Of a stretch of 64,000 nt of DNA, positions 17,604 to 63,210 are shown piece by piece. The position numbers and the translations under genes are program-made. Position 1 is the first letter of the stretch. Every line of letters starts with the position of its first letter. The notes below the pieces were generated by a model, which saw only the letters and a program-made list of their open reading frames with translations, was not told the origin of the DNA and searched no databases. The stretch lies in assembly GCA_964494795.1 (NCBI GenBank), contig CAZBSV010000074.1, positions 1,053-65,052 on the forward strand, read 5' to 3'. This stretch comes from an uncultured Spirochaetales bacterium. Lineage in GTDB: Bacteria; Myxococcota_A; UBA9160; SMWR01.

Positions 17604-17608
17604 CGAAC

Positions 17609-18199
17609 TCACCCCCCCTCACTACGACGGATCCGCATTTCGATATCTTTTTTCGTCACGTTGCCCAGATAATCCACATAGGTCTCGTTGATGACGACCA
17701 AGTTGTCATCAATCGTTGTTACCATCCCTTCGTTCTTTCCGATTCGCGTGCCCTTCGCGACGATGTAACTATGACCAGCCGGGTCCTCTACCAACGCCCT
17801 CGCGGATCCCGTATTCCAGACCACCGCAACGATCGATAGTTGGCTGACGTCGAATTGCTCCAGCGGTCCGCCAGCCACTTCTTGGCTCGAGATTTCCTTC
17901 CTCTCCCACTCGAACGACCGGAACGGATCCCGCAGGCCCTCCTTGTCGTAGAGCATTCCGGGCCCGGTTCCGGCGAAGCTGCCATCGATCGCCGGTGCGA
18001 CGGGAACCGCGGCGACTTGACTCGGCTGCACGGCGGGCGCCGCCGCGGCTTCACCCTTCTTCGCCTTCCGCTCGGCTACGCGCGCGTTTAGCTTGGCGCG
18101 CTCCTGTTGAAACTCGGCCTGGGTCGGCTGGTTGGCCTCTTCTTTGCAACCGACCAGCGCCAACAATCCGATCGAGATCGCGATGGCTGCAATTTTCAC
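17609..18199 (-). CDS. pilP: type IV pilus assembly lipoprotein PilP
   Basis: GTG 18199 with GGAGGGG RBS. Lipobox LLALVGC. C-terminal PilP domain (LRDPF...LEQFDVSQLSIVAVVWNTGSARALVEDPAGHSYIVAKGTRIGKNEG). Confidence 0.75.
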   Translation of the reverse strand: MKIAAIAISIGLLALVGCKEEANQPTQAEFQQERAKLNARVAERKAKKGEAAAAPAVQPSQVAAVPVAPAIDGSFAGTGPGMLYDKEGLRDPFRSFEWERKEISSQEVAGGPLEQFDVSQLSIVAVVWNTGSARALVEDPAGHSYIVAKGTRIGKNEGMVTTIDDNLVVINETYVDYLGNVTKKDIEMRIRRSEGG

Positions 18200-18242
18200 G
18201 CTACCCCTCCGCCCCGACCGACGTCCGCGAAGTACGCCCCGT

Positions 18243-18842
18243 CTACGCACCGGTTTCGGCTCCGACAAATCGGAACGTTGTCGCGGTTCCAGTCACCTTG
18301 AGTCGCGTGGAATCGAGCGATTCCATCGAGACCGCCAGCTTCAACGACCCCATGTTCACGATTCGCTTCAGCTGCGACAGAAGCTCAAAGAACTTTCCAA
18401 TGTCGTGATACTCGCCATCGAGCTCGATGGCGATCGGAACCTCGGCATAGAAATCGTGCAATATTTCCTGCTGCCGCTGAAAGGAGCGAATCTCGACGCC
18501 AGCTGTCTTGCCGAGATTGCTGATGTCGGTCAGCAGCACTTCGAGCTGCTGCTCGTTCGGGAGCTGGCGAAGCGCCTTCTTCAACTGCAGCTCGAGAGCT
18601 GCGATCTCAGCCTCGAATGCCTCGATGTTTCCCGCGACGAGTCGCACCTCGCTCAGCTTTCGCTGGAGACTCAACTCCTCCGCCTGAAGCCGCTCGAGTT
18701 CCTGAGCCTTCGCCTCGTAGATCCCAAAGTAATAGGCGACACAGCAGAGGATCCCGATGCCGGTGAGGATTCCGATTCGCACCCCCTTCGGAAGCTTCAG
18801 GATCTTGTCGAGCTTTTCTCGCGTATCCGCGCTGATTTCCAT
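18243..18842 (-). CDS. pilO: type IV pilus assembly protein PilO
   Basis: One TM segment, a coiled coil, then the PilO core (LPNEQQLEVLLTDISNLGKTAGVEIRSFQ...YAEVPIAIELDGEYHDIGKFF). GGAAGGAG RBS. Confidence 0.8.
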   Translation of the reverse strand: MEISADTREKLDKILKLPKGVRIGILTGIGILCCVAYYFGIYEAKAQELERLQAEELSLQRKLSEVRLVAGNIEAFEAEIAALELQLKKALRQLPNEQQLEVLLTDISNLGKTAGVEIRSFQRQQEILHDFYAEVPIAIELDGEYHDIGKFFELLSQLKRIVNMGSLKLAVSMESLDSTRLKVTGTATTFRFVGAETGA

Positions 18843-18856
18843 CGTCGCGCTCCTTC

Positions 18857-19429
18857 CTAGGTCGCGTCTGCCGCTTTTTTCGGATTCGGGTTCACGAGCA
18901 CCGCGCGAATCGTGAAACTCACCAAGCGCAGTCCGTCGGTTTCGGCACCCAGCTGTGTCTTGTCGAGATCCACCTGCTTGAAATACTCGGACTCGCCGAG
19001 ATGCCTCAAAAAGAGAGCAACGAGGTCGTTGTCGAGACTCTTCCCTGCCATCACGATCGCCGGGCCTTCGGTGGCGAGAGATGTCAACCAGAGTCGATCG
19101 GGCGTGCGCGCTGCCAGTTCCGCTAGCACCCGGACCGGCCCGCTTCGCGCGCGATCCAGCTCATCGATGACGTCGATCTTGGTCTGTAGCTGCTTCTTCT
19201 TTTCCCGGAAGGCAGCGACCTGCTCGAGCTGCGGCGCATACTGATCGATGTCGCGCTGCATCTGTTTCTTGCGAGCCTCGGACTCGCCGATGTCTTCGAC
19301 GATATTCGAATGCGCGAACCCGATCACCGCAGCCACGACGAGTGCGATCAGAGTCCCGTGCATGAGGAACTGGTGCAGTTCCACTTTGCGCCGGGCTTCG
19401 CGAACCGGGAGTAGGTTGATTTTCAGCAT
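18857..19429 (-). CDS. pilN: type IV pilus assembly protein PilN
   Basis: MLKINLLPVREARRK N-terminus, single TM segment, Fimbrial_assembly-like C-terminus. TAATG overlap with pilM. Confidence 0.8.
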   Translation of the reverse strand: MLKINLLPVREARRKVELHQFLMHGTLIALVVAAVIGFAHSNIVEDIGESEARKKQMQRDIDQYAPQLEQVAAFREKKKQLQTKIDVIDELDRARSGPVRVLAELAARTPDRLWLTSLATEGPAIVMAGKSLDNDLVALFLRHLGESEYFKQVDLDKTQLGAETDGLRLVSFTIRAVLVNPNPKKAADAT

Positions 19430-20508
19430 TATGAGTCCACCCTCCGCAACGCGAGCCCAACACCCACCCCGAGAGACGGCGCGAGGTCCTCTAGATAGGA
19501 TGAGTCGAACCTTGAACTCGGCGCCATGCGCGCAAGCGGATTCAGCAACTCGACCGGGAGGCCGGTTCTTTCGTGAAATGCGTTCTCGAATCCTGCGACG
19601 CAGGAGCTGCCGCCCGACAGGTAGACCCGCTCGATCCGACTGTCAGCGGTCGTCGCGGCGTAAAAGTCGAGCGAGCGACTGATTTCGCCAATCACGGTAT
19701 CGGAGACCGTCCGCATCGCCTGCTCGACCTCTTGAGGCACGACTTCCTGGCTGACTTCCGAGCGCCTTCCACCGAGCTTGAGCCGTTCGGCTTCTTCGAA
19801 GCTCACTGTCAGGGCCTTTTGGATTTCCTCGGTGTACTGATTTCCCGCCGTTGTGATGTCGCGCGTGAAGGCCGGAGCGCCGTTCGACACGATGTTGATG
19901 TTGACCACCTGTGCGCCAATGTTTACGAGCGCTACCGTCTGGTTTTCGCTGGTGTCGTAGTTGGCTTCGAACGCGTTCTCGACCGCAAACGCGGCGACGT
20001 CGATGGCAGCCGGAATCAGGCCTGCCTCCGTGATCACCTGAACGTAGTCGTCGATCAGATCCTTCTTGGCAGCAACCAGCAGCACGTCCATTTGCCCTTC
20101 CGTGCCACCAGAGTCCAGGATCTGGAAGTCGAGATTTACCTCATTCACGTCGAACGGGATGTATTGCTCGGCCTCCCAGCGAATCTGTTCTTCGAGTTCC
20201 GCCCGCGACATGGTCGGTAGACTTACTTTCTTCACGATCACCGAGTGCCCGCAGACGGCAGCTGCGGCGTATTTCGTCTTGATCTTCCCATTCTCGATCG
20301 CTTCACGAATCGCATTTGCGATCGCGCTCGAGTTCAGAAAGGCTCCCTGCACGATCGCCTCGTTGGGCAGCTTTGCCACACCAATGTGGGTTAGCTCGAA
20401 CTCGCGATCCCGCCCTTTGATCATGATCTCGACCGCTTTCACGCTCGAAGATCCGATGTCCAGGCCAATCATTGATTTTCCGCCGAAGTTTCCGAACCTA
20501 AACTTCAC
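19429..20508 (-). CDS. pilM: type IV pilus assembly ATPase-fold protein PilM
   Basis: Actin/FtsA-like fold motifs (IGLDIGSSSVKAVE, LVNIGAQVVNINIV, VYLSGGSS). GTG start overlapping the upstream HTH gene stop (GTGA). Confidence 0.9.
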   Translation of the reverse strand: MKFRFGNFGGKSMIGLDIGSSSVKAVEIMIKGRDREFELTHIGVAKLPNEAIVQGAFLNSSAIANAIREAIENGKIKTKYAAAAVCGHSVIVKKVSLPTMSRAELEEQIRWEAEQYIPFDVNEVNLDFQILDSGGTEGQMDVLLVAAKKDLIDDYVQVITEAGLIPAAIDVAAFAVENAFEANYDTSENQTVALVNIGAQVVNINIVSNGAPAFTRDITTAGNQYTEEIQKALTVSFEEAERLKLGGRRSEVSQEVVPQEVEQAMRTVSDTVIGEISRSLDFYAATTADSRIERVYLSGGSSCVAGFENAFHERTGLPVELLNPLARMAPSSRFDSSYLEDLAPSLGVGVGLALRRVDS

Positions 20509-20834
20509 GATTCACAGCCTCCGTCGGCCTGGGACTGCCTTTGGGGTGAGTTCTGACTTGCGCCTGCGCCTCGCGAAGCATCCGAGCCGCGGTCGCTTTG
20601 GAGTGCTTCGCTTCGAGAGACTGCCGATCCCATCGGGGCGGTTCCGAAGACCTGAGACTTTTCGGAAATCTTCATTCCGAGCGCGAGCAGGATCTTGCGC
20701 TTGGTATCGAGACGGCAGGCACGGCCGGCTTCGACGCGATCGATCGTCAAGGTGGAGAGGCCCGCCTTCCGAGCGAGCTCGGCCTTGCTCATCATGAGCG
20801 ATTCGCGATAGCGCTGGACGTTATTGCTCGGCAC
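20505..20834 (-). CDS. XRE-family helix-turn-helix protein
   Basis: 109 aa. HTH_3-like segment (MSKAELARKAGLSTLTIDRVEAGRACRLDTKRKILLALG). GTG 20834 preceded by GGGGGAGGGGG. Confidence 0.7.
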   Translation of the reverse strand: MPSNNVQRYRESLMMSKAELARKAGLSTLTIDRVEAGRACRLDTKRKILLALGMKISEKSQVFGTAPMGSAVSRSEALQSDRGSDASRGAGASQNSPQRQSQADGGCES

Positions 20835-21080
20835 CGCCCCCTCCCCCTGCCTGTCGGATGCCAGCGGCTGATGGCTCGAGCCCCAGGTTCGACGTTCGAG
20901 AGTATCGGCGTGCTGTTACGGGGACTTGAGAGAACCTGCGTCCGGTGCATGGTGTGGCGGATCACCGCCTCGGATGCGCAACTAGCCGGCAATCGAGCGG
21001 GCGAGGTGGGGGTATGGGGGCAGGTCTTCGGCCTGGGGCTGCCTCAGGATCCCGCGGAAAATCACCGATACGCAGGCACG

Positions 21081-25627: not shown

Positions 25628-26839
25628 TCAGCCGATGGTGTCCGCAATCTTGAAGATCGGCAGGTACATCGCGATCAGCATCGCACCAACGGTGCCTCCG
25701 AGGCCGACCATCATGATGGGCTCCAGCATCGCGGTAAGCGCATCGACCGCAGCGTCCACTTCTTCGTCGTAGAAGTCCGCGATCTTTCCGAGCATCGTCT
25801 CCATCGCTCCGGTTTCTTCGCCCACCGCGATCATCTGAACGACCATTCCAGGGAACACCTTCGACTCGGCTAGCGGCTCAGCGATCGTGCGCCCCTCTGA
25901 AATCGCCGTCCGCACCTTTGCGAGTGCTTCTTCGATTACCACGTTACCCGCGGTCCTCGAGACGATGTCCAATCCATCGAGGATCGGAACACCACTCGCG
26001 ATCATCGTTCCAAGCGTTCTGGTGAATCGCGCGACGGCCACCTTTCGAATCAGGGGGCCAAATACCGGCGCTTTGAGAAAGAGGCTGTCCGTCGCGCGGC
26101 GAAAATTCCGAGATCGCCTCCGCGCCTGGCCGAACGCAATTCCCACCGCCACTACACCCACGAGAAAGATTCCGAGCCACTCTTGCATGAAGTGGCTCAA
26201 GTTCACCACCACTTGCGTCGGCCCGGGAAGTTCACCACCGAAGTCCGAGAACATCTTCTCGAAGGTTGGAATCACCTTCACGAGCAGCAACCCGACGACG
26301 CCGACCGCCACCACGAGGACCGTGGTCGGATAGACCATCGCGCCCTTCACCTTTCGCGCCAGCGCATCGGCTTTTTCGAGGTAGACCGCCAGCCGATTCA
26401 GGATCGTGTCGAGAATACCTCCGATTTCACCCGCCGCGACCAGATTGCAATAAAGGGAATCGAACGGCTTGGGGTGCTTGGAAAGCGCGTCGGCGAACGT
26501 CGATCCCTGCTCGACATCCGAGCGGGTTTCATCGATCGCCAACTTGAACGTCGGGTTATCCTGCTGGTCGCCGAGAATCTTCAGACATTGAACCAGCGGA
26601 AGACCCGCGTCGATCATCGTCGCGAACTGCCGCGTGAAGATCACGAGTTCCTTGGTCTTGATCTTCTTCTTGAGAAAACCAAGATATTCCGAAATGTCCT
26701 TCGCTTTTGCGGCGACCTTGACCGGCGTGAGCATCTGACCGCGAAGCTGCGCCTCGACGGCTTCTTTGCTCACCGCCTCCATGGTGCCCGCTTTCACGGT
26801 TCCTTGTCGCGTCTTACCCTTCCAGGTATAGACCGGCAT
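25628..26839 (-). CDS. pilC: type IV pilus platform protein PilC
   Basis: Two T2SSF repeats (FTRQFATMIDAGLPLVQCL ... FTRTLGTMIASGVPILDGL). GGAGGGGG RBS. Confidence 0.9.
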   Translation of the reverse strand: MPVYTWKGKTRQGTVKAGTMEAVSKEAVEAQLRGQMLTPVKVAAKAKDISEYLGFLKKKIKTKELVIFTRQFATMIDAGLPLVQCLKILGDQQDNPTFKLAIDETRSDVEQGSTFADALSKHPKPFDSLYCNLVAAGEIGGILDTILNRLAVYLEKADALARKVKGAMVYPTTVLVVAVGVVGLLLVKVIPTFEKMFSDFGGELPGPTQVVVNLSHFMQEWLGIFLVGVVAVGIAFGQARRRSRNFRRATDSLFLKAPVFGPLIRKVAVARFTRTLGTMIASGVPILDGLDIVSRTAGNVVIEEALAKVRTAISEGRTIAEPLAESKVFPGMVVQMIAVGEETGAMETMLGKIADFYDEEVDAAVDALTAMLEPIMMVGLGGTVGAMLIAMYLPIFKIADTIG

Positions 26840-26868
26840 CGTCTTTCACCCCCTCCAGTGCTCTTCGA

Positions 26869-27975
26869 TCAACTCTTTCCAGCGGATCGGCGCCCCGCCT
26901 GATTCGCTCCGCCGCTCTGAGTCATGAGGTTTCGGAGCTCGTCAACGTCCGGGCTTCTACTCATGGCGCTTTCCATCGAAATCAGCCGCCGTTGATGGAG
27001 CGACGCCAACGATTGGTTCATCGTCTGCATGCCAAACTTCTCCTGGCCGACCTGCATCGACGAATAGATCTGATGGATCTTGTCTTCGCGGATCAAGTTG
27101 CGAATCGCTGCATTCGGAATCATCACTTCGAGCGCCATCGCGCGACCGGGTCCATTTGCTTTCGGAAGCAGCGCCTGACACAGAACACCTTCCAGCACGA
27201 AGGAGAGCTGAGCTCGAATCTGCGCCTGCTGGTACGGCGGAAACACGTCGACCACGCGATTGATCGTCTGGACAGCCGAATTCGTGTGCAGCGTCCCGAA
27301 AGCGAGGTGCCCCGTTTCGGCGACGGTCAATGCAGCCTCGATCGTCTCGAGGTCCCGCATCTCGCCGATCAGAACGACGTCCGGGTCCTGACGCAGGATG
27401 TACTTGAGAGCCAGTTTGAAACTCGCGGTATCGGCACCCACCTCACGTTGATTGACGATGCAACCCTTGTGCGGGTGTAGATACTCGATCGGGTCCTCGA
27501 TCGTCACGATGTGCTCGTTGCGCTCCTGGTTGATCTTGTTGACGATCGCTGCGAGCGTCGTCGACTTTCCCGAACCCGTCGGGCCCGTGACCAGGATCAG
27601 GCCTCGGGGCCTCTCGCTGAGCTCGCTCACGATCTTCGGAAGGCCGAGATCTTCGACGCTCGGAATCGTGTACGGGATCGCCCGAAACGCCCCTGAAACG
27701 TTGCCGCGCTGAATGAAGACGTTTCCGCGGAAGCGCGACAATTTTTGCACGCTGAACGAAAGGTCGAGCTCGTTGTTCTCCTCGAAGCGGTGCTTCTGGG
27801 CGTCCGTCAGAACCGAATAGCAGAGTTGCTTGGTTTCGGGAGGCGAAAGTGGCGGCATCCGCAATGGATGCAGCTTTCCATCGATCCGAAGCTGCGGCGA
27901 CGTGCCCGTGGTGATGTGAAGGTCGCTCGCGCCCTTCTCGATCATCGCCTTTAGTAGTTGATGCATGTTGGCCAT
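26869..27975 (-). CDS. pilT: twitching motility retraction ATPase PilT
   Basis: GASDLHI, GPTGSGKSTT, IVTIEDPIE, GEMRD, GHLAFGTLHTNSA, AIRNLIRE motifs. Confidence 0.9.
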   Translation of the reverse strand: MANMHQLLKAMIEKGASDLHITTGTSPQLRIDGKLHPLRMPPLSPPETKQLCYSVLTDAQKHRFEENNELDLSFSVQKLSRFRGNVFIQRGNVSGAFRAIPYTIPSVEDLGLPKIVSELSERPRGLILVTGPTGSGKSTTLAAIVNKINQERNEHIVTIEDPIEYLHPHKGCIVNQREVGADTASFKLALKYILRQDPDVVLIGEMRDLETIEAALTVAETGHLAFGTLHTNSAVQTINRVVDVFPPYQQAQIRAQLSFVLEGVLCQALLPKANGPGRAMALEVMIPNAAIRNLIREDKIHQIYSSMQVGQEKFGMQTMNQSLASLHQRRLISMESAMSRSPDVDELRNLMTQSGGANQAGRRSAGKS

Positions 27976-27984
27976 TGCGGGCTC

Positions 27985-29685
<1,701 letters not shown>

Positions 29686-29841
29686 GGACCGCCTGCCTCC
29701 TGATCCCGACGCGACGCCCCAGCCGCAGACGCCGAATCCAGCGGCGCGCGATGGGGAATCGCAACGATCCCTGCCCCACTGCCCCATGCCGTGGAATTCG
29801 TCGGGAACCCGCCGGGTTATCGGCGGCACGCAAGATGGGCT

Positions 29842-31074
29842 TTACTGTGCGTTGGGCTCGGAGGAAGAGTCTTCGGAGTTCTCAGCGGCCCGCTCGAGCT
29901 CCTGCCACGAGGTGTGGCGAAAGCGCAGGACCGCGAAGCCGAGCGGCGTCACGATGAGCCAGAAAGCGGCGTGCAACAGCGTCCCAAGCGCCACCGCCAA
30001 CTCCGGTGACACGCCGAAGGGCTCGAGGGCGATCCGGCAAGCCGCGTGGTAGGTGCCGAAAAAACCCGGTGCGGACGGGATCGCAACCGCCATCCCGACG
30101 GCAGCCAGCACGATCCAAGCCGCCACCAGCGTTTCGAACGGCCCGCCGAAATCGATCCGGAGAGCCCAAAAGCCCGCCAACATGGGGACCGTGGAAGCGA
30201 CGAACCAGACCAAGATCGAGTGAAGTCCGATCCAGAAGAGGTGAGATCCGCCCTTCAACGCGCCGAGGCCCTCGCCAAATCGGCTCAGGACATCGACCAG
30301 ATACTTGCCGAAGCGCGCCGGGAAGGGTCGGAGCAGCCAGCTCGCGGCGCCGATCACGAGATGGGGCGCGAGCCGGAGGGTCAAGACCCCGATCAGCGGC
30401 GCGGCCGCGACCGGAATCAGCGCATACGCGACCCGCGCGAGCACGTCCTCGCTGCCCGAGCCGCGCAGCGAAATCGCGAGGCAGGCGAGCCCGAGCACCA
30501 TGACGGTGTCGATCACGCGCTCGAGGATGACCGTGCCAAACAGAGCCGCGGACGACGCTCCGACCTCGCGGCTGAGATACATCGGCCGAATGATCTCTCC
30601 CAGTCGCAGCGGAAAAATATTGTTCGCCATGAATCCGACCGCCGTGGCCCGAAACAACGGGCGGACGCCGATCGGCTGAATGGGGTCCGTCAGATGGCGC
30701 CAGCGCATGGCGCGCAGCTGGATCACCGCGAGATACGAGGGAAGCGAGAGTCCGATCAGCAGCAACCAGTTCGCTTGGCGAAGCGTCGACGCAACCAGGG
30801 CGATGTCCACGTCCCGAATCACGTACCAGATGAAGCCAGCCGTGATCCCGAAACCCAGCCAGACGCGGTAATCCCGGATCCGGCTGCGACGGCGGGGAGT
30901 CTCGCTTCGAAGCGCTGTGCGTCCGCCGACCGTCAGGGCAGACCCAGGATGGCACGAGCCGCAGCGACATCGGTCGCGATCTGCGCTCTCAGCGCGTCGG
31001 CGCCCGAGAATCGCCGCTCTTCCCGCAAGCGCTCTACGAACGACATCTCGATGCGGCGCCCGTAGGCGTCGCAC
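29842..31074 (-). CDS. flippase-like (UPF0104 / lysylphosphatidylglycerol-synthase TM region) membrane protein
   Basis: Multi-TM protein with RAMRWRHL, FMANNIFPLRLGEIIRP and ERVIDT motifs. The only in-frame start upstream of TM1 is GTG 31074, which overlaps the ribF 3' end by 142 nt, so the start is uncertain. Confidence 0.6.
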   Translation of the reverse strand: MRRLRAPHRDVVRRALAGRAAILGRRRAESADRDRCRCGSCHPGSALTVGGRTALRSETPRRRSRIRDYRVWLGFGITAGFIWYVIRDVDIALVASTLRQANWLLLIGLSLPSYLAVIQLRAMRWRHLTDPIQPIGVRPLFRATAVGFMANNIFPLRLGEIIRPMYLSREVGASSAALFGTVILERVIDTVMVLGLACLAISLRGSGSEDVLARVAYALIPVAAAPLIGVLTLRLAPHLVIGAASWLLRPFPARFGKYLVDVLSRFGEGLGALKGGSHLFWIGLHSILVWFVASTVPMLAGFWALRIDFGGPFETLVAAWIVLAAVGMAVAIPSAPGFFGTYHAACRIALEPFGVSPELAVALGTLLHAAFWLIVTPLGFAVLRFRHTSWQELERAAENSEDSSSEPNAQ

Positions 31075-54255: not shown

Positions 54256-54700
54256 CCTTTCCCGTGACGCCCATCAGCTGACGCAGGGTCGCCTTCAGCT
54301 TTGCGTCGTCCCAGGGTTTCGTGACGAGCGCGCGGATGCCGATCTCCGCGAGGCGCTCGGGCGGAATCTCCTGGGTCCAACCCGTGATCAGCATCCGAAT
54401 CGCATCGGGACTCGACTCCGCCGCTCGCTCGAGCAACTGGACACCGCTCATGCCGGGCATCTTGTGATCGGAGAGGATCGCGTCGACGCTGCGCTCGGCG
54501 AGAACCCGCAACGCAGCTGCCGCACTTTCGACAGCGACGATCTCGTAGCCCTCGCGGCGAAGTGACCGCTTCAGCGCGGAGAGGATCTGGGCTTCGTCGT
54601 CGACGAGCAGGAGTGTGGGCCGAGTCGATCCTGTTTTGACTTTCGATCCGGCCTTGCCCTTCAATCCGCGCCCCTTTCTCGGTCCGCACCCGGAAGCCAT
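54191..54700 (-). CDS. single-domain CheY-like response regulator
   Basis: LLLVDDE, ILSDHKMPGMSG, LITG, VTKPW. 65-nt convergent overlap with the preceding plus-strand gene. The start overlaps the kinase gene end. Confidence 0.8.
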   Translation of the reverse strand: MASGCGPRKGRGLKGKAGSKVKTGSTRPTLLLVDDEAQILSALKRSLRREGYEIVAVESAAAALRVLAERSVDAILSDHKMPGMSGVQLLERAAESSPDAIRMLITGWTQEIPPERLAEIGIRALVTKPWDDAKLKATLRQLMGVTGKASRREADSGTPDRSSDYSLRR

Positions 54701-56286
54701 ACCGTGAACCGGGTTCCCACACCGGGTTCGCTGTCGGCCACGAGACTGCCGCCGTGGCGTTCGACGATGTTGAAACTCGTCGACAACCCCAGGCCGGTAC
54801 CGACCCCGACTTTCTTCGTGGTGAAGAACGGATCGAAGATCCGGCCCATGTGTTCGGGAGCGATTCCCACCCCCGTATCCCTCACGATGATCGCGACGCC
54901 GCCCGCCCGGGGCTCCGTCTTCAGCCAGATCGTTCCCGTCTTTCCGCTGTCTCCAATCCGCTCTTCGACGGCCTGATAAGCGTTGACGAGCAGGTTCATG
55001 AACACCTGCTGCAGCTGCATCGGGTAACAGTAGACGGCGGGAAGGTTGCGATACTCCTTCTCGAGCTGCACCAGGTGTTTCATCATCGGCCAGACGATGC
55101 CCGCCGTCGAATCGAGGAACTGGTTGACGTCCGCCAATACGCGGTGCTCGCTGTCGCGGTGCGAGAAATCGCGCAGGTCGTGAACGATGTGGCGAATCCG
55201 CTCGGATCCCTCTTGCGACTCGCGAATTGCCTTGGCGAAATCGGAGAGCACGAACGCGACATCGAGTTCCTTGGCAGCCGCAGTCAGCGCACTCGAACTG
55301 CGTTGGATCTCGGCGAGATCCGCACCCGCCACGGCTGCCTGCAGCGCATCGACTTCGCGCCAGGCGCGCTGCAGGTCACCCAGGTACTCGGCCATCTGGA
55401 ACAGATTTGCGTGAATGAATCCCATCGGATTGTTGATCTCGTGGGCGACGCCGGCAGCGAGCTGCCCGATCGAGGCCATCTTCTCCGTCTGCAGGACTTT
55501 GCGCTGCAATAGCTTTATTTCGGTGAGATCCGAGAATACGGCGACGGCGCCGAGCTTGGCGCCCGCGCTATCGAAGACCGGCGCGCTGGAGATTCCGATC
55601 GGCACGCTCGTCCCGTCGGCTCGCGTGAGGGTCATCTCCATCCCCTTGAAGCGCTCCCCGGTTTCGAGCGTGCGCGCGACGTGATTCTGATCGCGCGGAA
55701 CCCCGCGGAAGCAGCTCTCGATCAGCTGCCCGCGCAATTGCTCCGCGTTCGCACCGAGGATCTCCTCGGCCGGAGGGTTCGAGAAGGCGATCCGGCCCTC
55801 GAGATCGACCACCAACAGCGCGCTATTCAAGTTTTGGATGATGTTCTGGTTGTAGCTCTCGAGGTCGCGGATCCGACGCTCCGCGACTCCCTGGTCGCGA
55901 GCCGCTCGCCAGCGCTGAATCTGCTCCAACGCAACCACGGGCAGCACGTCCGAAAATTCCTCGCCCGCAACCACGCAATCCGCCGCGCCTCGCCGGAAGG
56001 CTTCGAGCGCGGCTTCCTCACTCGGGCTGCAGTGGACCACGATCACCGGCGGGCCATCGACCTTGAATGCTTCGAGCAAATCCCAGCATTCGGAACCGAG
56101 CGCCGACTCCACGACGATCAGGTCGACCGGCGCATCCCGGCATCGGCCGCGGCAGGCAGCCGCATCGCGCACGGTCTCGATCGCTGCGCCCGGACCCAAC
56201 CGGCGCAGGGCCATGCCGGGGTCCGGCCCGGCGGACTGCGCGGAGCGCGCAACGATGATCCGAACTCCGGCGCGCGCTCGCTCCAC
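54661..56286 (-). CDS. histidine kinase with N-terminal pseudo-receiver, PAS, HisKA and HATPase_c domains
   Basis: The REC-like N-terminus has E at the acceptor position (DLIVVESAL). PAS-like region (LNSALLVVDLEGRIAFSN), H-box AAGVAHEINNPM, N/G boxes (LLVNAYQA; DTGVGI; GTGLGLS). Confidence 0.85.
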   Translation of the reverse strand: MERARAGVRIIVARSAQSAGPDPGMALRRLGPGAAIETVRDAAACRGRCRDAPVDLIVVESALGSECWDLLEAFKVDGPPVIVVHCSPSEEAALEAFRRGAADCVVAGEEFSDVLPVVALEQIQRWRAARDQGVAERRIRDLESYNQNIIQNLNSALLVVDLEGRIAFSNPPAEEILGANAEQLRGQLIESCFRGVPRDQNHVARTLETGERFKGMEMTLTRADGTSVPIGISSAPVFDSAGAKLGAVAVFSDLTEIKLLQRKVLQTEKMASIGQLAAGVAHEINNPMGFIHANLFQMAEYLGDLQRAWREVDALQAAVAGADLAEIQRSSSALTAAAKELDVAFVLSDFAKAIRESQEGSERIRHIVHDLRDFSHRDSEHRVLADVNQFLDSTAGIVWPMMKHLVQLEKEYRNLPAVYCYPMQLQQVFMNLLVNAYQAVEERIGDSGKTGTIWLKTEPRAGGVAIIVRDTGVGIAPEHMGRIFDPFFTTKKVGVGTGLGLSTSFNIVERHGGSLVADSEPGVGTRFTVWLPGADRERGAD

Positions 56287-56420: not shown

Positions 56421-56500
56421 TTGGCTGGACTCGGTTCACCCTGGTCAGCCTCGGATCGCCCTGGTCAGCCTCGGATCGCCCTGGTCAGCCTCGGATCACC
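56421..56500. repeat. 20-nt tandem repeat, 3 exact-phase copies plus 1 degenerate
   Basis: ctggtcagcctcggatcgcc at 56441, 56461 and 56481, preceded by a degenerate copy. It lies in the 209-nt spacer between the activator gene stop (which it overlaps) and the kinase gene start. Confidence 0.85.
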
Positions 56501-57920
56501 GTGGCTGGGTGCGAATCTTCGAGGCGATGTCGTGCTTGGCGAGTTTGCGGTAGAAGGTGCTGCGCCCAATTCCAAGCATATTCGCAGCCGCGCTGGCGTC
56601 CCCCGCGCATTCCGCCAGCGCGCGCTCGAGCGCGCATCTCTCGTAGGCGTCCAGGGAAATCGGTAGGCTCGTCGGAGCGAGCGCCGAAACGGCTCGCGTC
56701 GCGGGTCGATTGATCGCGAGATCCGAGACGCGCAGACGCGGCCCGCGCGCGAGCGCCATCGCCGACTCGATGATGTTCTCGAGCTCGCGAACGTTGCCCG
56801 GCCAATCGGATGCCATCAGAAGTTCGAGCGCTCTCTCTTCGATGCCCTCGACGCGCGAATTCTCATCTGCGTGCTTGCGGAGAAAATGCTGCACGAGCAG
56901 CGGAATGTCCTCGCGCCGCTCCCGAAGCGGAGGGATCACGATCCGAACCACGTTGAGTCGATAGAAGAGATCCGTTCGAAACCGACCTTCCTCCACCATC
57001 GTCGCCAGATCGCGATGGGTCGCCGAAATCACGCGAATGTCGACGGGGACCGCACTCGCCGCGCCCACGGGCCGAACCTCTTTCTGCTGCAGGGCTCGCA
57101 GCAACTTCGCCTGGACGGCGGGCGGGATCTCGCCGATCTCGTCGAGAAAAAGGGTCCCGCGGTTCGCGATCCGGAACAGGCCTGGCGCACCAACCGCACC
57201 GGTGAATGCACCCTTTTCATGCCCGAACAACTCGCTCTCGATGATGCTCTCCGGCAGCGCCCCGCAGTCGACGGGAACGAAGTCGCCTCCCGATCGCGGG
57301 CTCGCGGCGTGAATCCCGCAGGCCACCAACTCTTTGCCGGTTCCACTCTCCCCCTGCAGCAGAACATGACTCTCGTTGTGCCGGAGGCTGTGAATCTTGC
57401 TCGCAAGAGTACGCATCGCCGGCGAATTGCCGACGAGCGCCGGGATCGAGGCGCGCGCGCGCAGCTCCGTTTCGAGTTCCCGGTTGCGGCGGACCAACCT
57501 GCGCCGCTCGATCGCCTTGCGCACGGTCGTCTGGATCCGATGCACGTCATCGAACGGCTTTTCGAGATAGTCGAAGGCGCCTTTTCGGATGCAACCGACC
57601 GCGCTCTCGATACTGCCGTGACCGGTCATGACGATCACTTCGATTTCGGGGCGCGCGCTCTTGATCTGCTCGAGCAGTGCGAGCCCGCTGACCGGTCCGA
57701 GCAAAAGGTCCACCAGGGCGACGTCGAGGCGCGGATCGGAGAGATGCGGCGTCGCCTCGCTCACGGACTGCGCGAGCGCGGTTTCGTAGCCCGCGCGCTC
57801 GAGAACGCGCTTGAGCGACTGGAGCAACAGCGGCTCGTCGTCGACCAACAGAACGAAGCCCGAGGCTTCGGGCGCCGAGAAGCGGCGTGCGTCGGGCGAT
57901 TCCGCGCTCGCAGGTGTCAT
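56496..57920 (-). CDS. sigma-54-dependent NtrC-family response regulator
   Basis: REC (VALVDLLLG), [21 protein letters not shown], Fis HTH (AANMLGIGRSTFYRKL). ATG 57920 is preferred over TTG 58001. Confidence 0.85.
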   Translation of the reverse strand: MTPASAESPDARRFSAPEASGFVLLVDDEPLLLQSLKRVLERAGYETALAQSVSEATPHLSDPRLDVALVDLLLGPVSGLALLEQIKSARPEIEVIVMTGHGSIESAVGCIRKGAFDYLEKPFDDVHRIQTTVRKAIERRRLVRRNRELETELRARASIPALVGNSPAMRTLASKIHSLRHNESHVLLQGESGTGKELVACGIHAASPRSGGDFVPVDCGALPESIIESELFGHEKGAFTGAVGAPGLFRIANRGTLFLDEIGEIPPAVQAKLLRALQQKEVRPVGAASAVPVDIRVISATHRDLATMVEEGRFRTDLFYRLNVVRIVIPPLRERREDIPLLVQHFLRKHADENSRVEGIEERALELLMASDWPGNVRELENIIESAMALARGPRLRVSDLAINRPATRAVSALAPTSLPISLDAYERCALERALAECAGDASAAANMLGIGRSTFYRKLAKHDIASKIRTQPR

Positions 57921-57955
57921 GGAAGTCGTATCGGTCCCGAATTCGGGACGCTTGA

Positions 57956-59536
57956 ATGCCGAGGTCGGGGTCTCTAAGATACCCGGCGCCCCCTCCGCCA
58001 AGCGGAGTCAACCCACTGCGCAGCTCCAACATTCTCGTCGTCGATGACGAGGAACTCTATCGGCGAGCCCTCGAGCGCATTCTCGTCCGCGCCGGGCACC
58101 AGGTTGCCACCGCGCGAGACGCGATGGCGGCGCTCAGCCTCGTCTCGAGTCAGCCGACCGACCTCGTCCTGGCCGATATCCGGATGCCGGGCATCAACGG
58201 CCTCGAATTGGTGCGACAGATCCACGAGATTGCGCCGGATCTGCCCTGCATCGTCATCACCGGGCATGGCAGCCCCGAAAGCTCGGTGGAGGCGCTGAAG
58301 GCCGGAGCCTACTGGTACCTCGAAAAGCCCTTCGACCAGGGGCATCTCGATGTCGTTCGCAGGCTCGTCGAGCAGGCCATCGAGCACGGCCGACTCAAGT
58401 CTGAGAATCGAATGCTCCAGGGTCAGCTGCGTTCGCGGTATCGATTCGAGAACATCATCGGCACCAGCGCCGCGCTGCGCGGCGTGCTCGAAACCGTTTC
58501 GAAAGTGGCCGCTTCGGACAGCACCGTCCTCATCACGGGTGAGAGCGGAACCGGCAAGGAACTCGTCGCGCGCGCGATCCACTTCAACAACAAGCGGGCG
58601 GACAAGATGTTCGTAACCGTCAATTGCGGGGCGATCCCGGAAGAACTTCTCGAGTCCGAACTGTTCGGCCACGTTCGCGGCGCCTTCACGAACGCGGTCG
58701 CCAACCGCGAAGGCCGATTCTCCGTCGCCCACGAGGGAACGATCTTCCTCGACGAAATCGGCGACATGAGCCCCACCTTGCAGGTGAAGTTGTTGCGCGT
58801 ACTGCAGGATCGGACGTTCGAGCCCGTCGGTTCATCGAAGACCCAAAGCGTCGACGTGCGCGTGATCGCCGCCACCAACCAGAATCTCGACGAAGCGATC
58901 GCGCAGCGCCGCTTCCGCGAGGATCTCTACTATCGACTCAACGTGATTCCGATCGTGGTTCCTCCGCTGCGAGATCGCCGCGACGACATCCCGCTGCTCG
59001 CGCAGCACTTCTTGAACCTCGCCAACGAGGGCCGAGGCGAGCGGGCCGTGGAATTCTCCGACGAAGTCATCGCGCGATTGGCAGAATTCGACTGGCCCGG
59101 AAACGTGCGTGAACTCGAAAACCTCGTGGAGCGCATGGTCACGCTCTGCTCGGGCCGTGAAATCGTCGCGAGTGACCTTCCGAAGTCGCTGCAGAAGAGC
59201 GCTCCGCCGCGCCCGTCGGCGCCGCAGATCCCACCCCAAGGCTTGAGCTTTCGGGACGTCGTGGACCAGTTCGAATCGGACCTGATTCGCCAGGCACTCG
59301 AAATCACCCACGGCAACAAGAACCGCGCCGCGCAGCTGATCCAGATGAATCGCACCACGATGCTCGAGAAGATGAAGAAGAAAGGCGTCAAGTTCGATGC
59401 GGGGTCGAGCGATTCAACACGAGTGGACGGAACGCTTCGCGCCGAGGCTGCCGATCCGCGCGAAGTCGACGGGTTCGCAAACACGACCGCTGGCAGCGAA
59501 GCCGGCGACTCGCCAAACCCGCGGCGCACGCACTGA
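57956..59536 (+). CDS. sigma-54-dependent NtrC-family response regulator with variant GAFTNA loop
   Basis: REC (LVLADIRMPGING), [21 protein letters not shown], Fis HTH (GNKNRAAQLIQMNRTTMLEKMKK). Divergent from the previous activator with only a 35-nt spacer. Confidence 0.85.
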   Translation: MPRSGSLRYPAPPPPSGVNPLRSSNILVVDDEELYRRALERILVRAGHQVATARDAMAALSLVSSQPTDLVLADIRMPGINGLELVRQIHEIAPDLPCIVITGHGSPESSVEALKAGAYWYLEKPFDQGHLDVVRRLVEQAIEHGRLKSENRMLQGQLRSRYRFENIIGTSAALRGVLETVSKVAASDSTVLITGESGTGKELVARAIHFNNKRADKMFVTVNCGAIPEELLESELFGHVRGAFTNAVANREGRFSVAHEGTIFLDEIGDMSPTLQVKLLRVLQDRTFEPVGSSKTQSVDVRVIAATNQNLDEAIAQRRFREDLYYRLNVIPIVVPPLRDRRDDIPLLAQHFLNLANEGRGERAVEFSDEVIARLAEFDWPGNVRELENLVERMVTLCSGREIVASDLPKSLQKSAPPRPSAPQIPPQGLSFRDVVDQFESDLIRQALEITHGNKNRAAQLIQMNRTTMLEKMKKKGVKFDAGSSDSTRVDGTLRAEAADPREVDGFANTTAGSEAGDSPNPRRTH

Positions 59537-59683
59537 CGCTGCAGCGCGGGTTCGCTCGGCAGCGGCAAGACGCTGACGGTTCCGTAACCGTTCTGCGCCC
59601 CGAGCGTCGAAACGCTGACGATGTTGCGCGGCTGTGATTCCTGCAGCCGCCGCCGGCGGCAGCTGATCCGCTGAGCAAATTCT

Positions 59684-59707
59684 CTCTCGAGATCTCCCTC
59701 GAGATCT
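59684..59707 (+). promoter_or_regulatory. tandem 12-nt direct repeat with embedded palindromes (possible activator binding site)
   Basis: ctctcgagatct ccctcgagatct, followed by an A-tract. It is about 100 nt upstream of the sigma-54 promoter motif. Its function is inferred from position only. Confidence 0.35.
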
Positions 59708-59808
59708 AAAAAAGCCAAGTGAAATCAATAGCCTAGGCGCTCTCGCCTCGACCCTCTTGCCGGGCGCATGCGCATTTCGAGGCGGCCGGCGTTGGGGTCT
59801 CGGGACGA

Positions 59809-59826
59809 TTGGCACAGCGCGTGCTT
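59809..59826 (+). promoter_or_regulatory. sigma-54 (-24/-12) promoter motif
   Basis: TTGGCACAGCGCGTGCTT has GG and GC separated by exactly 10 nt, with one mismatch to TGGCAC-N5-TTGC. It lies about 90 nt upstream of the FliA-family sigma gene. Confidence 0.6.
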
Positions 59827-59914
59827 CTTCACGCAAACGGCGGCACGCGGCGCTTCGATCGCCCGATTGCCCTGAGATCAACCCGGTTGCGTTCAGCCTA
59901 GGAGAAAACCCGCC

Positions 59915-60679
59915 ATGGAAGGTCTGCTCAGAGAAGCGAAGGAACAGCATTCCGAGGTCCCCCCGCTGCTCAAAGAGCAGATCGTGCTCGAGCACACGCC
60001 GCTGATTCGTTACATCGTGAATCGAATCGCCGTGCGCCTACCCTCTCATATCGATCTCGACGATCTGCACAACACCGGTGTGATCGGCCTGATGGACGCG
60101 ATCGACAAGTACGACCCCGACAAGAACTGCAAATTCAAGACCTACGCGGAATTTCGCATCAAGGGCGCGATTCTGGATCAACTTCGCTCGCTCGACTGGG
60201 TGCCGCGCAGCGTTCGCCAGAAGAGCCGACGACTCGAGCGAGCGTACGGCGAAGTCGAGCAACGACTGGGACGCACCGCGAGCGAAGACGAGGTCGCAGA
60301 TTCGCTCGGAATCCAGATCGACAAATTCTACGAACTCATCAACCAGGTGCGCGGTATATCCCTGGTGAATCTCGAAGAAATCCGCGGAACCAACTCGGAC
60401 GGCGATCGCACGGGAACCTATTCCGACATCGTCGAAGACGTGAATTCGGAGAATCCGTTCGCCTCACTCAAGGTTGCCGAAAGCAAGCAGGTGATCGCGG
60501 ACATGATCGGAACACTCCCCGAAAAGGAACGCCTGGTCATCTCGCTGTACTACTACGAAGACCTCAACATGAAGGAAATCGGGTCGATTCTCGGAATCAC
60601 CGAGTCGAGGGTCTGCCAGATTCACACCAAATCCGTCTTGCGCCTGCGGTCGAAGCTCAAGGGAATGTTGGACCGATAG
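59915..60679 (+). CDS. fliA: FliA/WhiG-family (sigma-28 type) RNA polymerase sigma factor
   Basis: Region 2 (DDLHNTGVIGLMDAIDKYDP...FKTYAEFRIKGAILDQLR), region 3, and region 4.2 (LNMKEIGSILGITESRVCQIHTKSVLRLR). AGGAGA RBS. Confidence 0.85.
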   Translation: MEGLLREAKEQHSEVPPLLKEQIVLEHTPLIRYIVNRIAVRLPSHIDLDDLHNTGVIGLMDAIDKYDPDKNCKFKTYAEFRIKGAILDQLRSLDWVPRSVRQKSRRLERAYGEVEQRLGRTASEDEVADSLGIQIDKFYELINQVRGISLVNLEEIRGTNSDGDRTGTYSDIVEDVNSENPFASLKVAESKQVIADMIGTLPEKERLVISLYYYEDLNMKEIGSILGITESRVCQIHTKSVLRLRSKLKGMLDR

Positions 60680-60716: not shown

Positions 60717-61451
60717 TCAGTCGGACTCTTTCTCGTTTCGAACGAGAATCAGCGTGATGTTGTCTTCGCCCCCGCGCTCGTTTGCGAGATCGACGAGTTG
60801 CGCGCAGACCGCATCGAGGTCGGAGTCCGAGTTGGCCGCCTCCGCGATCTCATGGTCGTGAACGAGCCCCGTCAACCCGTCGGAACAGAGCACGAAGAGA
60901 TCCCCCGGAGAGGATGTCAGCTCCGCGAGGTCGGGAGCGACCTCGCGGCGCACGCCGATCGCACGCGTCAGCACGTGCCGATGCGGGTGCTCGCGCGCCG
61001 CCGATGCCGAGATCTCGCGCCGCCGCACGAGTTCGCCGACCACCGAGTGGTCGTCCGTGAGTTGCCGGATGCGCCCCCCGCGGATCAGGTAGCCGCGGCT
61101 ATCTCCAACGTGCGCGAGTGCAATCCGCCCGTCCGCGGCAAGCAGGGATACCAGGGTCGTCCCCATGCCGGCGAATTCGGCCTTCGTTTGGGCGGCGACG
61201 TAGATCTCGCGGTTCGCCGCTGCGACCGTGCAGCGCAATTTCTCGGTGAGCGTGGCCGAAGAGCCTTCGAGCGCTTCGAGCGCGCCGACCGCCGCTTCGG
61301 CCGCGAGCCGGCTCGCGAGCTGGCCGGCCTTGTGGCCCCCCATGCCATCGGCGACGACGAAATATCCGAGTTCCGCGGCGATCGCGTAGCAGTCCTCGTT
61401 GGCGCGCCGGCGGCGGCCAACATCGGTACGGGCGGCGGATCGGAGGATCAT
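60717..61451 (-). CDS. PP2C-family Ser/Thr protein phosphatase
   Basis: TDVGRRRRANEDCY, VADGMGGHKAG, GTTLV, HVGDSRGY, LCSDGL, GGEDNITL. Confidence 0.85.
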   Translation of the reverse strand: MILRSAARTDVGRRRRANEDCYAIAAELGYFVVADGMGGHKAGQLASRLAAEAAVGALEALEGSSATLTEKLRCTVAAANREIYVAAQTKAEFAGMGTTLVSLLAADGRIALAHVGDSRGYLIRGGRIRQLTDDHSVVGELVRRREISASAAREHPHRHVLTRAIGVRREVAPDLAELTSSPGDLFVLCSDGLTGLVHDHEIAEAANSDSDLDAVCAQLVDLANERGGEDNITLILVRNEKESD

Positions 61452-61698
61452 GCTCGCTGAGGGCCCCTCGCAGGATTTCACGGCTCCGCCGGTCGACCGA
61501 AGCTGCCGGAGGCGGAATACTCTCCCCCGGGTTCATCGGAAGGAGGCGAGACCGGCTTGACCCGCAGCCGGCTGAACGCAGCGCGACACGAGCAAAAAAC
61601 CATTCAATTTCAGGGAATCCGCCGTCGATACTACATCTCGAGGATGACTTGCCCGAGCAACGCCGTCCTGCGCCGCGAGCGCACCCTTGGGGGGGACC

Positions 61699-63210
61699 AT
61701 GCCGAAGACGATTTTATTGGCCGACGACAGCGTCACGATCCAGAAAGTCGTAGGCATAAGCTTTGCCAGCGAGGATGCGATCGTCGTGACCGTCGACAAC
61801 GGTGACGATGCGATCACCAAGACTCGCGAAATCCGTCCCGACATCGTCCTCGCAGACGTCGTGATGCCCGGCAAAAACGGCTACGAGGTCTGCCAAGCGA
61901 TCACAAACGACCCGGATCTCGCGCACATTCCGGTGCTGCTGTTGACCGGAACCTTCGAGGCCTTCGACGAAGCACGCGCGCGCGAGGTGGGTTCGGCGGG
62001 CCACATCGCAAAACCCTTCGAAGCGTCAGCCCTGGTCGCCGAGGTTCGGCGTTTGACGGACTCGGCGTCCGCCAAAGCGTCCGCCAAAGCGTCCGCCAAG
62101 GCGCCCGCCAAGGCGCCCGCTTCGCCGCAAACCGCGCCCACAAGGCCGGCCGCCCAGCAAGCTGTCGCGGTCGATGCATTCGACTTTTTCGACGACGAAA
62201 TCGGAGGGGCCGAGATTCCGCCCGCCGAACTCGCCGACGAAATGCTGGGCGACTTCAAATTCCAGGGCAGCGAGAGCGCAATCGCATTCGACGCTGACGT
62301 CCGCGGCGAATCTGCGGACTCGCGCGAGCGATTCGTGCCCATCACGCCCGATGTGGCCCGTGCGGTCGAGGCCGTCGAAGTCCGCCGCGTGTCCTCCTAT
62401 GCCGACGCCGCCGAGACCAGCGCTCCGTTCGCGACGTCGCGCGCAAGCGCGGCGGCGCCGGTATTCGACGACAGCCTCGACGATTCACTGTCTCCCGATG
62501 CGAGCCGCAGTGGCGATCGACCGTTCGACTTCGCACTCGCCGGCGAAATCGCGGATGCGACGGATCCGCTCGCCGAATTCGACCTGATGCCGCCCGTGGA
62601 CGCAGACGACCTCGCGCATGCCACAGTGATCGACCCACTCGGCGCTTCCGGCTACGACGTGTCGTCCTCGGACCTCGGACCGCCAATGCGCGACACCGCA
62701 CCGGATCTCGTGAGCGTCGCGCGCGCCCGCCAGCACGAGGCCGAGTTGACCGTGTTGGCAGCCGACGTCCCGCTCGAAGCGGAACCGATCTTCGACGACG
62801 ACTCATTCGGATTCGGGTCACCCGCGAACGACCTCACCCGCGTCGTGCGCGAAGATCCCGTGTACGCGAACTTTGCGACCCCGCGGCCGCCCGACGTCGC
62901 GGTCGAAGAGGACGAGCCCGAGAGCTGGCCTTCCCGGCGCCGCAGCGTGACCGCGCAAACTCCGCGCGCCGACCGCAAGGCAGACTCCGCGGCTGCGCTG
63001 ATCGCGAAGATCGGACCCGAATTGCGTCAGCAACTCCACGACACGCTCGAGAAGATCGCCTGGGAGTCGTTCGGCGACCTCACCGAAGCGATCGTCCGGC
63101 AGTCGGTGGAGCGCGTCGAATCGATCGCCTGGGAGGTCATCCCGCGGATGGCCGAAACCCTGATCGAGGAAGAAATCCGCAGAATGAAGAACGAGCCCGA
63201 AGACGCGTGA
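61699..63210 (+). CDS. response regulator with receiver domain, about 330 aa of acidic/Ala-Pro-rich linker and a conserved-looking C-terminal helical domain (RomR-like architecture)
   Basis: REC (ILLADDS, IVLADVVMPGKNG, LLTG, IAKPF). Low-complexity middle. C-terminus LHDTLEKIAWESFGDLTEAIVRQSVERVESIAWEVIPRMAETLIEEEIRRMK. ATG 61699 after a G-run RBS. Confidence 0.75.
   Translation: MPKTILLADDSVTIQKVVGISFASEDAIVVTVDNGDDAITKTREIRPDIVLADVVMPGKNGYEVCQAITNDPDLAHIPVLLLTGTFEAFDEARAREVGSAGHIAKPFEASALVAEVRRLTDSASAKASAKASAKAPAKAPASPQTAPTRPAAQQAVAVDAFDFFDDEIGGAEIPPAELADEMLGDFKFQGSESAIAFDADVRGESADSRERFVPITPDVARAVEAVEVRRVSSYADAAETSAPFATSRASAAAPVFDDSLDDSLSPDASRSGDRPFDFALAGEIADATDPLAEFDLMPPVDADDLAHATVIDPLGASGYDVSSSDLGPPMRDTAPDLVSVARARQHEAELTVLAADVPLEAEPIFDDDSFGFGSPANDLTRVVREDPVYANFATPRPPDVAVEEDEPESWPSRRRSVTAQTPRADRKADSAAALIAKIGPELRQQLHDTLEKIAWESFGDLTEAIVRQSVERVESIAWEVIPRMAETLIEEEIRRMKNEPEDA
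62065..62120 (+). repeat. 12-nt tandem repeat, about 4.5 copies, in-frame (SAKA/PAKA)
   Basis: gcgtccgccaaa x3 then gcgcccgccaag x1-2. They encode SAKASAKASAKAPAKAPA just after the receiver domain. Confidence 0.85.

Follow-up and report, generated by a model that had tools for sequence, protein, structure and literature searches.

What does a sigma factor of the flagellar FliA/WhiG family regulate when its gene lies in a stretch of DNA that carries type IV pilus genes, and what switches that gene on? The question is raised by a co-oriented gene pair in a 64-kb stretch of contig CAZBSV010000074.1 (hereafter the window) from an uncultured member of the Myxococcota, in which the gene for an NtrC-type activator, EBP-B, precedes that for the sigma factor. 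Comparison of the window with related loci points to a cascade in which a histidine kinase, EBP-B and sigma-54 would switch on the sigma-28-like factor, which would in turn serve type IV pilus genes and feed back onto signalling genes. Judged from sequence comparison, this reading is assigned a probability of roughly 0.6. Relatives were collected by scanning a single genome for each species, which yielded 512 confirmed examples; 80 loci with a total length of 794 kb were kept, all from uncultured Myxococcota metagenome-assembled genomes (MAGs) with sigma factors 84-99% identical to that of the window, and one of them (L001) is identical in sequence to the window. Placement of the lineage in UBA9160 / Myxococcota_A is based on the name of one relative, a UBA9160 isolate (L045), and on a preprint (bioRxiv 10.64898/2026.07.10.737566).

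The sigma factor and its sigma-54 promoter

The gene pair and the promoter in question are located as follows.

57956-60679 (+): EBP-B and the sigma gene, a co-oriented pair with a 378-nt gap between them
59809..59826 (+): sigma-54 promoter TTGGCAC-AGCGC-GTGCTT (TTGGCACAGCGCGTGCTT), with GG at 59811-12 and GC at 59823-24
59915..60679 (+): FliA/WhiG-family sigma factor, 254 aa, with ribosome-binding site (RBS) AGGAG and ATG at 59915

An earlier sequence-only reading of the window had identified the product of the second gene as a FliA/WhiG-type sigma factor, and this identity is borne out by a score of 276.8 bits against the FliA_WhiG model TIGR02479 (cutoff 189.6) and by the presence of all three Pfam sigma regions r2, r3 and r4. 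The score against the WhiG equivalog NF004935 (291.5) lies under the cutoff of that model (343). The closest PDB entries are 6pfv and 6pfj (235 bits), labelled in the PDB table only as "RNA polymerase sigma factor" and taken by us to be Streptomyces WhiG-RsiG complexes, followed by E. coli FliA (6pmi, 195 bits).

The same reading had described a near-consensus -24/-12 element about 90 nt upstream of this gene. The element is present, with its GC 91 nt before the sigma ATG and a GG-GC spacing of 10 nt; across 59810-59825, TGGCAC-AGCGC-GTGCT differs by one mismatch from the 16-mer TGGCAC-N5-TTGCW, and transcription of the sigma gene is predicted to start near 59836. A scan of the window with a loose sigma-54 pattern (at most two mismatches) returned 16 matches versus 18.4 expected and hence no enrichment, although the sigma promoter is one of only three matches with at most one mismatch and the only one of these with an intact TGGCAC. 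Since the window by itself showed no enrichment, the reality of the promoter was decided by comparison. Where 188 nt or more of upstream DNA is available, TTGGCA(C/T)-N5-(G/C/A)TGC(T/A) was found in 80/80 loci, at 62-187 nt before the ATG. In an alignment of 76 upstream sequences spanning -240 to +30, the columns average 45% identity and the sole invariant columns are those of TTGGCA and TGC (nine bases), while the five spacer bases between -24 and -12 vary freely. Invariant TTGGCA and TGC halves around a free spacer are what a working -24/-12 element is expected to show. By this pattern of substitution, purifying selection acts strongly on the sigma-54 promoter before the sigma gene, and its invariance across relatives supports the earlier proposal that a FliA/WhiG sigma factor is under sigma-54 control.

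That the genome contains rpoN is deduced solely from the five sigma-54 activator genes found in the window by domain search. Another sigma-54-like element, GGGCACGCTTCTTGCT (one mismatch; 40722-40737, +), adjoins the start of the open reading frame (ORF) for an SLT transglycosylase.

The adjacent activator and the upstream region

The activator gene, the repeat upstream of the sigma-54 promoter and the blocks conserved among relatives are listed below, with distances given from the -24 element.

57956..59536 (+): EBP-B, NtrC-type response-regulator activator with Response_reg, Sigma54_activat, AAA_lid_14 and HTH_8 domains and also an NCBIfam match
59684..59707 (+): 12-nt tandem palindromic repeat CTCTCGAGATCT CCCTCGAGATCT, 102-125 nt upstream
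59574..59588 (+): block A, TGACGG(T/A)T(T/C)CGTAAC (TGACGGTTTCGTAAC), about -240
59604..59629 (+): block B, GCGTCGGA-n-CTGACGCTnCTGCGC, an imperfect CGTCG/TGACG inverted repeat, about -210
59641..59662 (+): block C, the GC-rich inverted repeat (T/C)GCCGCC-N3-6-GG(C/T)GGCA, about -170
about -140: block D, CGCA-N6-TGCG(C/T)A, degenerate in the subclade that includes the window
59708..59737 (+): block E, an A-tract and IHF-like site, about -90, with nearly invariant A, C and T columns in the alignment

The upstream gene had been described as an NtrC-family activator with an unusual GAFTNA loop, and both parts of this description hold. Pfam identified PF00158 (1.5e-72), PF02954 and PF00072 in EBP-B, and the translation contains intact Walker A (GESGTGKE) and Walker B (DEIG) motifs together with the receiver Asp. 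The loop reads GHVRGAFTNA; across 65 EBP-B orthologs its fifth position is N in 54, S in 4, H in 3, G in 3 and D in 1. As the majority form of the orthogroup, GAFTNA is regarded as a tolerated, lineage-typical variant and not as a defect. The variants GAFTDA and GAFTHA occur in D. vulgaris activators that were judged functional and have predicted sigma-54 regulons (PMC4641369). EBP-B offers a natural GAFTNA activator for probing how far the loop that contacts sigma-54 tolerates change.

An EBP-B homologue lies at most 1.5 kb upstream of the sigma gene in 65/80 loci; the remaining loci are mostly cut short upstream, and two of them (L067 and L071) carry EBP-B at a greater distance. This arrangement bears on two other ways in which the sigma gene might be expressed, namely activation of the sigma-54 promoter by a different activator (EBP-A, encoded divergently beside EBP-B, or a remote one) and co-transcription of the sigma gene mainly by read-through from EBP-B. 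The window offers five candidate activators, and the gap between EBP-B and the sigma gene contains neither a sigma-70-like promoter nor a + strand terminator-like site, so that read-through from EBP-B is possible. However, EBP-B stands beside the sigma gene with few exceptions where upstream DNA exists, EBP-A is missing from 18/59 loci in which the promoter and the upstream blocks are kept, and a nine-base invariant -24/-12 element would not persist if read-through sufficed. Both routes are considered quite unlikely, and EBP-B is the putative activator of the sigma promoter.

The sequence-only reading had proposed the tandem repeat as the enhancer bound by EBP-B. The repeat is present at 59684-59707, is palindromic, abuts an AT-rich patch and lies at a distance upstream of the -24 element that suits such a role. 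Tandem Repeats Finder delimits the array as 59681-59707 (period 12, 2.2 copies, score 47), with an A6 tract directly after it, and about a dozen further arrays in the window score 40-49, so the repeat does not rise above background. Among the fetched loci, its decamer occurs in the sigma upstream region of the identical L001 only; the 12-mer is missing even from L003-L008, in which the sigma factor is 95-99% and EBP-B 78-85% identical to those of the window, and in the alignment it falls where the gap is least conserved. Absent from relatives, weak, and of a kind common in the window, the repeat was rejected as the enhancer, and binding of EBP-B there is considered most improbable.

Blocks A-D and the IHF-like site are better candidates for the enhancer region, as far as conservation in the alignment can indicate. 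Blocks A-D hold fixed distances from the -24 element, between about -240 and -130. The loose pattern for block A is in place in 32 loci and has 3 matches elsewhere in the 794 kb, and block B is in place in 47 loci. Within block E, AATCAATAGCCTA at 59723-59735 agrees with the IHF consensus WATCAANNNNTTR at 12/13 positions, and two relatives (L063 and L064) agree with it at every position. An Rfam scan of the sigma upstream region returned 0 families, and RNAalifold on the alignment produced neither a consensus structure nor covarying pairs; the blocks were accordingly rejected as structured RNA and are best read as protein-binding DNA. We infer the assignment of individual blocks to proteins and the use of IHF. 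A second sigma-54 promoter within blocks C/D was also considered and rejected, the spacing of GGCA...TGCGCA there (~23 nt) being incompatible with such a promoter.

Pilus and signalling genes as predicted targets

A search for sigma-28-type promoters, proposed in the sequence-only reading, was run on the window and on the related loci, and the predicted targets that emerged are pilus operons and the neighbours of the sigma gene on either side. Matches were obtained by pattern and by position weight matrix (PWM).

29817..29844 (-): pilB promoter, TAAA-N16-GCCGATAA, both consensus halves exact
25628..29685 (-): pilB, pilT and pilC, motor and platform genes with T2SSE, MshEN and T2SSF domains
20902..20929 (-): HTH-pilMNOPQ promoter, TCAAG-N15-GCCGATAC, PWM and pattern match
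14556..20834 (-): small XRE/HTH_3 gene (20505-20834), then pilM, pilN, pilO, pilP and pilQ, identified by Pfam
61604..61631 (+): promoter of an orphan receiver gene (RR), TCAAT-N15-GTCGATAC, top PWM match in the window and exact to the pattern
61699..63210 (+): RR, orphan receiver protein with Response_reg as its only Pfam match
57928..57955 (-): EBP-A promoter, TCAAG-N15-ACCGATAC, PWM and pattern match
56496..57920 (-): EBP-A, second NtrC-type sigma-54 activator, with Response_reg, Sigma54_activat and HTH_8 domains and a canonical GAFTGA loop
61533..61560 (-): degenerate PP2C promoter, TCAAG-N15-TCCGATGA, read from the sequence
60717..61481 (-): Stp1-type PP2C Ser/Thr phosphatase, 258 bits against NF033484 (cutoff 230)
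54661..56286 (-): cytoplasmic PAS histidine kinase with PAS, HisKA and HATPase_c domains

In the 80 loci, TCAA-N16-nnCGATA matched 129 times, whereas about 1.8 matches were expected by an estimate from base composition. Almost all of these matches (123/129) lie at three syntenic intergenic sites and point toward the downstream gene; of the six that remain, four precede an RR gene that is displaced. The window itself contains five matches to TMAA-N18-CGATA versus 0.25 expected, a number reached in 0/100 shuffles. Four of the five are in the upstream regions of pilB, HTH-pilM, EBP-A and RR, and the fifth is inside pilT.

At the pilB operon, the start codon and RBS read from the sequence place the true start of pilB at GTG 29685. 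The motif T(A/C)AAG-N15/16-(G/A)CCGATA occurs 94-160 nt upstream of pilB in 8/10 of the closest metagenome PilB relatives, with unrelated spacers in the eight; almost all more distant PilB relatives are without it. Two distant, AT-rich PilB relatives (L125 and L148) carry TTAAAGT-N-GCCGATA just upstream of pilB, which suggests sigma-28 control of pilB in other lineages as well.

At the second pilus operon, the small helix-turn-helix (HTH) gene is the first gene behind the promoter and overlaps the pilM start by 4 nt, an arrangement kept in 7/7 relatives. All seven PilM-homolog loci (7/7) carry CTCAAGTCCnCG(T/A)AAC-N5-(G/A)CCGATA at 91-105 nt upstream of the HTH gene. These loci (L163-L169) keep the gene order HTH, pilM, pilN, pilO and usually pilP as far as they extend, and one of them, L166, belongs to the same assembly as the sigma locus L030. 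Divergent from pilM is a further activator gene, for which the mechanical 613-aa ORF (20598-22439, +) is over-extended; its real start lies near 21081 (MPDRILLIEP), and its relatives are 451-463 aa long.

Around the sigma gene, the motif precedes RR in 51/58 loci. The EBP-A gene is present in 41/59 loci covering its region, and the motif is found at the corresponding site in 34/41 loci having EBP-A versus 2/18 without it. In 28/37 loci the EBP-A ATG follows the -10 octamer by 7-8 nt, and the 35-nt divergent gap between EBP-A and EBP-B is wholly occupied by the EBP-A promoter. The true start of EBP-A is likely ATG 57920, with the mechanical ORF start at 58001 too early. A fixed ATG spacing of 7-8 nt fits a leaderless transcript and, as a matter of position, speaks strongly for the motif being a promoter; from this spacing, the EBP-A mRNA appears to be leaderless or near-leaderless. 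The PP2C gene is convergent with the sigma gene and syntenic in related loci. The histidine kinase gene is likewise syntenic in nearly all related loci extending that far, and the kinase is likely the sensor partner of the adjacent activators.

The RR protein consists of a receiver, a ~300-aa acidic/Ala/Pro low-complexity linker that includes a SAKA repeat, and a helical C-terminal tail of ~70 aa that is conserved; a homology search with the tail returned 28 unnamed fragments and no Pfam or PDB relative. This layout is reminiscent of RomR, which has a receiver, a long Pro-rich linker and a Glu-rich tail (PMC2034494), although the RR linker is acidic and Ala-rich and not clearly Pro-rich, and RR resembles RomR in architecture only.

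The motif might instead be the site of another factor or be read by a different sigma factor. The link between T(C/A)AA-N16-nnCGATA and this sigma protein is drawn from sequence, and its -35 half is more commonly TCAA than the enteric TAAA. Yet the motif has two blocks at fixed spacing around a free spacer sequence, and it always points toward the downstream gene, either 50-160 nt from the start codon or 7-8 nt from a leaderless ATG. It moreover matches the flagellar-clade consensus used successfully for WhiG in Rubrobacter and clusters around the sole FliA-family gene in view, and recognition by something other than this sigma factor is thus held to be very unlikely. Autoregulation of the sigma gene was rejected, as its own upstream region lacks a sigma-28-type motif in every locus.

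The window had also been said to show no flagellar genes. For the window, to which the statement is limited, this is correct: 46 reading frames scanned against Pfam yielded 0 flagellar families. No flagellar genes were found beside the sigma gene in the 80 related loci either (±6 kb around the sigma gene). Apart from the sigma locus, the window contains pilQPONM, pilS, pilR, pilC, pilT, pilB and housekeeping genes, and a type IV pilin signature (GFTLIE-like) is absent from every frame of it.

These observations bear on whether the sigma factor might be an ordinary flagellar FliA, with flagellar genes elsewhere in the genome, the usual hierarchy as in Vibrio and Geobacter, and the pilus promoters as minor additions. 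In several flagellated groups fliA is as a rule controlled by sigma-54 (PMC2725144), genes for flagellar assembly are present in the genomes of some uncultured Myxococcota (bioRxiv 10.1101/2021.07.06.451402), the view of the source genome is 64 kb, and the homologs in JGI are named "sigma factor for flagellar operon FliA", though this is an automatic label. In all 80 species, however, the sigma gene lies within a signalling module and not in a flagellar cluster, and the window holds no flagellar Pfam family. All conserved sigma-28-type promoters that were found belong to pilus or signalling genes, and a Danish Myxococcota survey that includes UBA9160 makes no mention of flagella. An ordinary flagellar role is accordingly judged unlikely.

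Two further features of the loci were recorded. In the MAG JADFQO01, two contigs (L006 and L010) each hold a sigma-PP2C(-RR) locus, with sigma factors 97% and 92% identical to that of the window; a mixed bin is more likely here than paralogs. Long tandem repeats with 20-27-nt units in 3.5-4.9 copies occur in the window at 56430-56504, 40431-40516, 38146-38261, 46798-46930 and 63399-63472, at least the first of which is intergenic, in the gap that separates the start of the kinase gene from the stop codon of EBP-A.

The proposed cascade and known systems

The gene identities, the synteny, the conservation of the -24/-12 element, the conservation and fixed position of the sigma-28-type motif, and the non-conservation of the tandem repeat are the observations on which the proposed cascade is built. 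At its head, the PAS histidine kinase would phosphorylate EBP-B, which would bind blocks A-D and not the tandem repeat. DNA bending at the IHF-like site (~-90) would allow EBP-B to remodel the sigma-54 holoenzyme at TTGGCAC-N5-GTGCT, switching the sigma gene on. The newly made sigma factor would then read T(C/A)AA-N16-nnCGATA at pilB(-pilT-pilC), HTH-pilMNOPQ, RR, PP2C and EBP-A. With EBP-A expressed from a predicted leaderless transcript and the kinase gene downstream of it, the sigma factor would exert feedback and feed-forward control on sigma-54 signalling, and the outcome would be expression of the pilus machinery. In this scheme the pairing of activator and promoter, the blocks bound, the part of IHF, the reading of the motif by the sigma factor, the operon extents and the direction of regulation are all predictions.

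Several points weigh against the cascade. Putative activation of the sigma promoter by EBP-B draws on the adjacency of the two alone, and GAFTNA was not found in the activator literature. The strict motif lies upstream of PP2C in 29/66 loci, under half of those compared, and the fifth pattern match of the window, inside pilT (27429-27455, -), may be an internal pilC promoter or a chance occurrence. The pilB relatives are metagenome contigs tied to the sigma-bearing lineage by PilB identity only. No FlgM-like or RsiG-like anti-sigma factor was identified in the window (no search was aimed at FlgM; the RsiG motif E..S..R...Q...D is absent from its six frames). A second FliA paralog or flagellar genes may exist elsewhere in these genomes, in keeping with the flagellar assembly encoded by some uncultured Myxococcota, and read-through from EBP-B counts here as well.

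If the cascade operates as proposed, a flagellar-clade sigma factor would read the pilus motor and assembly operons as a second tier of regulation, within a module found in hundreds of species-level genomes. The motif T(C/A)AA-N16-nnCGATA is usable for regulon mining in uncultured Myxococcota, and its predictions are open to direct test, with in vitro transcription and heterologous reporters, in the absence of a cultured organism.

What is known of pilus regulation in myxobacteria comes largely from one model species, in which PilS/PilR and sigma-54 act on pilA. In Myxococcus xanthus, as in Pseudomonas, PilS/PilR and sigma-54 control pilA. To our knowledge, the myxobacterial model species has no FliA-type sigma factor. 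The present locus is similar to the PilS/PilR system in that sigma-54 and NtrC-type activators would govern pilus genes, and a pilS/pilR pair is itself present in the window. In contrast to that system, which acts directly on the pilin gene, control here would be indirect, through an intermediate sigma factor acting on pilBTC and pilMNOPQ.

Sigma-54 is known or predicted to control fliA in Geobacter, Vibrio and Campylobacter (PMC2725144). The fliA operon of Geobacter sulfurreducens and its counterparts in Vibrio and Campylobacter share with the cascade proposed here the succession of a sigma-54 promoter with an NtrC-type activator, a sigma-28-family gene and a second promoter tier. Here, in contrast, the sigma gene lies outside a flagellar operon, the predicted targets are pilus and signalling genes, and the activator carries GAFTNA. 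Moreover, one of the predicted targets is another sigma-54 activator, so that two sigma types would alternate, unlike in the flagellar fliA hierarchies.

Re-use of flagellar-clade regulators or parts, including in pilus-driven motility, is also found in other bacteria: FliA persists in Legionella oakridgensis, a non-flagellated species (PMC5655016), and in the non-flagellated Lysobacter enzymogenes components of flagellar export are co-opted for twitching motility (PMC7277350). Loss of flagella is documented in those two species and is only a possibility here, and the targets of FliA in L. oakridgensis are not pilus genes.

The closest parallel is found in Rubrobacter radiotolerans, in which WhiG controls type IV pilus genes, as established by the same kind of consensus search together with start-site mapping (PMC8325347); WhiG-pilus regulons are predicted in other Actinomycetota (PMC12871210). 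Both systems comprise a sigma factor of the sigma-28/WhiG family, TAAA/GCCGATAA-type promoters in the pilus cluster and feedback onto signalling genes, which is predicted for the present locus. They differ in that the present locus belongs to another, Gram-negative phylum and its window is without an RsiG-type c-di-GMP anti-sigma motif. Control here appears to be transcriptional, by sigma-54 and an activator, whereas in Rubrobacter it is post-translational, through c-di-GMP. The steps from sigma-54 to fliA and from WhiG to the pilus are thus each known already, and it is their combination that differs here. More tentatively, and at somewhat less than even odds, the locus may represent an ancestral flagellar sigma factor rewired into a dedicated type IV pilus regulator in a phylum-level uncultured, possibly non-flagellated lineage of Myxococcota(_A), set within a sigma-54 to sigma-28 to sigma-54 cascade that would run from EBP-B through the sigma factor to a leaderless EBP-A and the kinase. 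Confirmation of the cascade would make it the second independent co-option of a sigma-28 factor for pili after that in Rubrobacter; on the more tentative reading, it would be an independent Gram-negative parallel to the WhiG-controlled pili of Actinomycetota in which sigma-54 gating replaces the c-di-GMP/RsiG switch.

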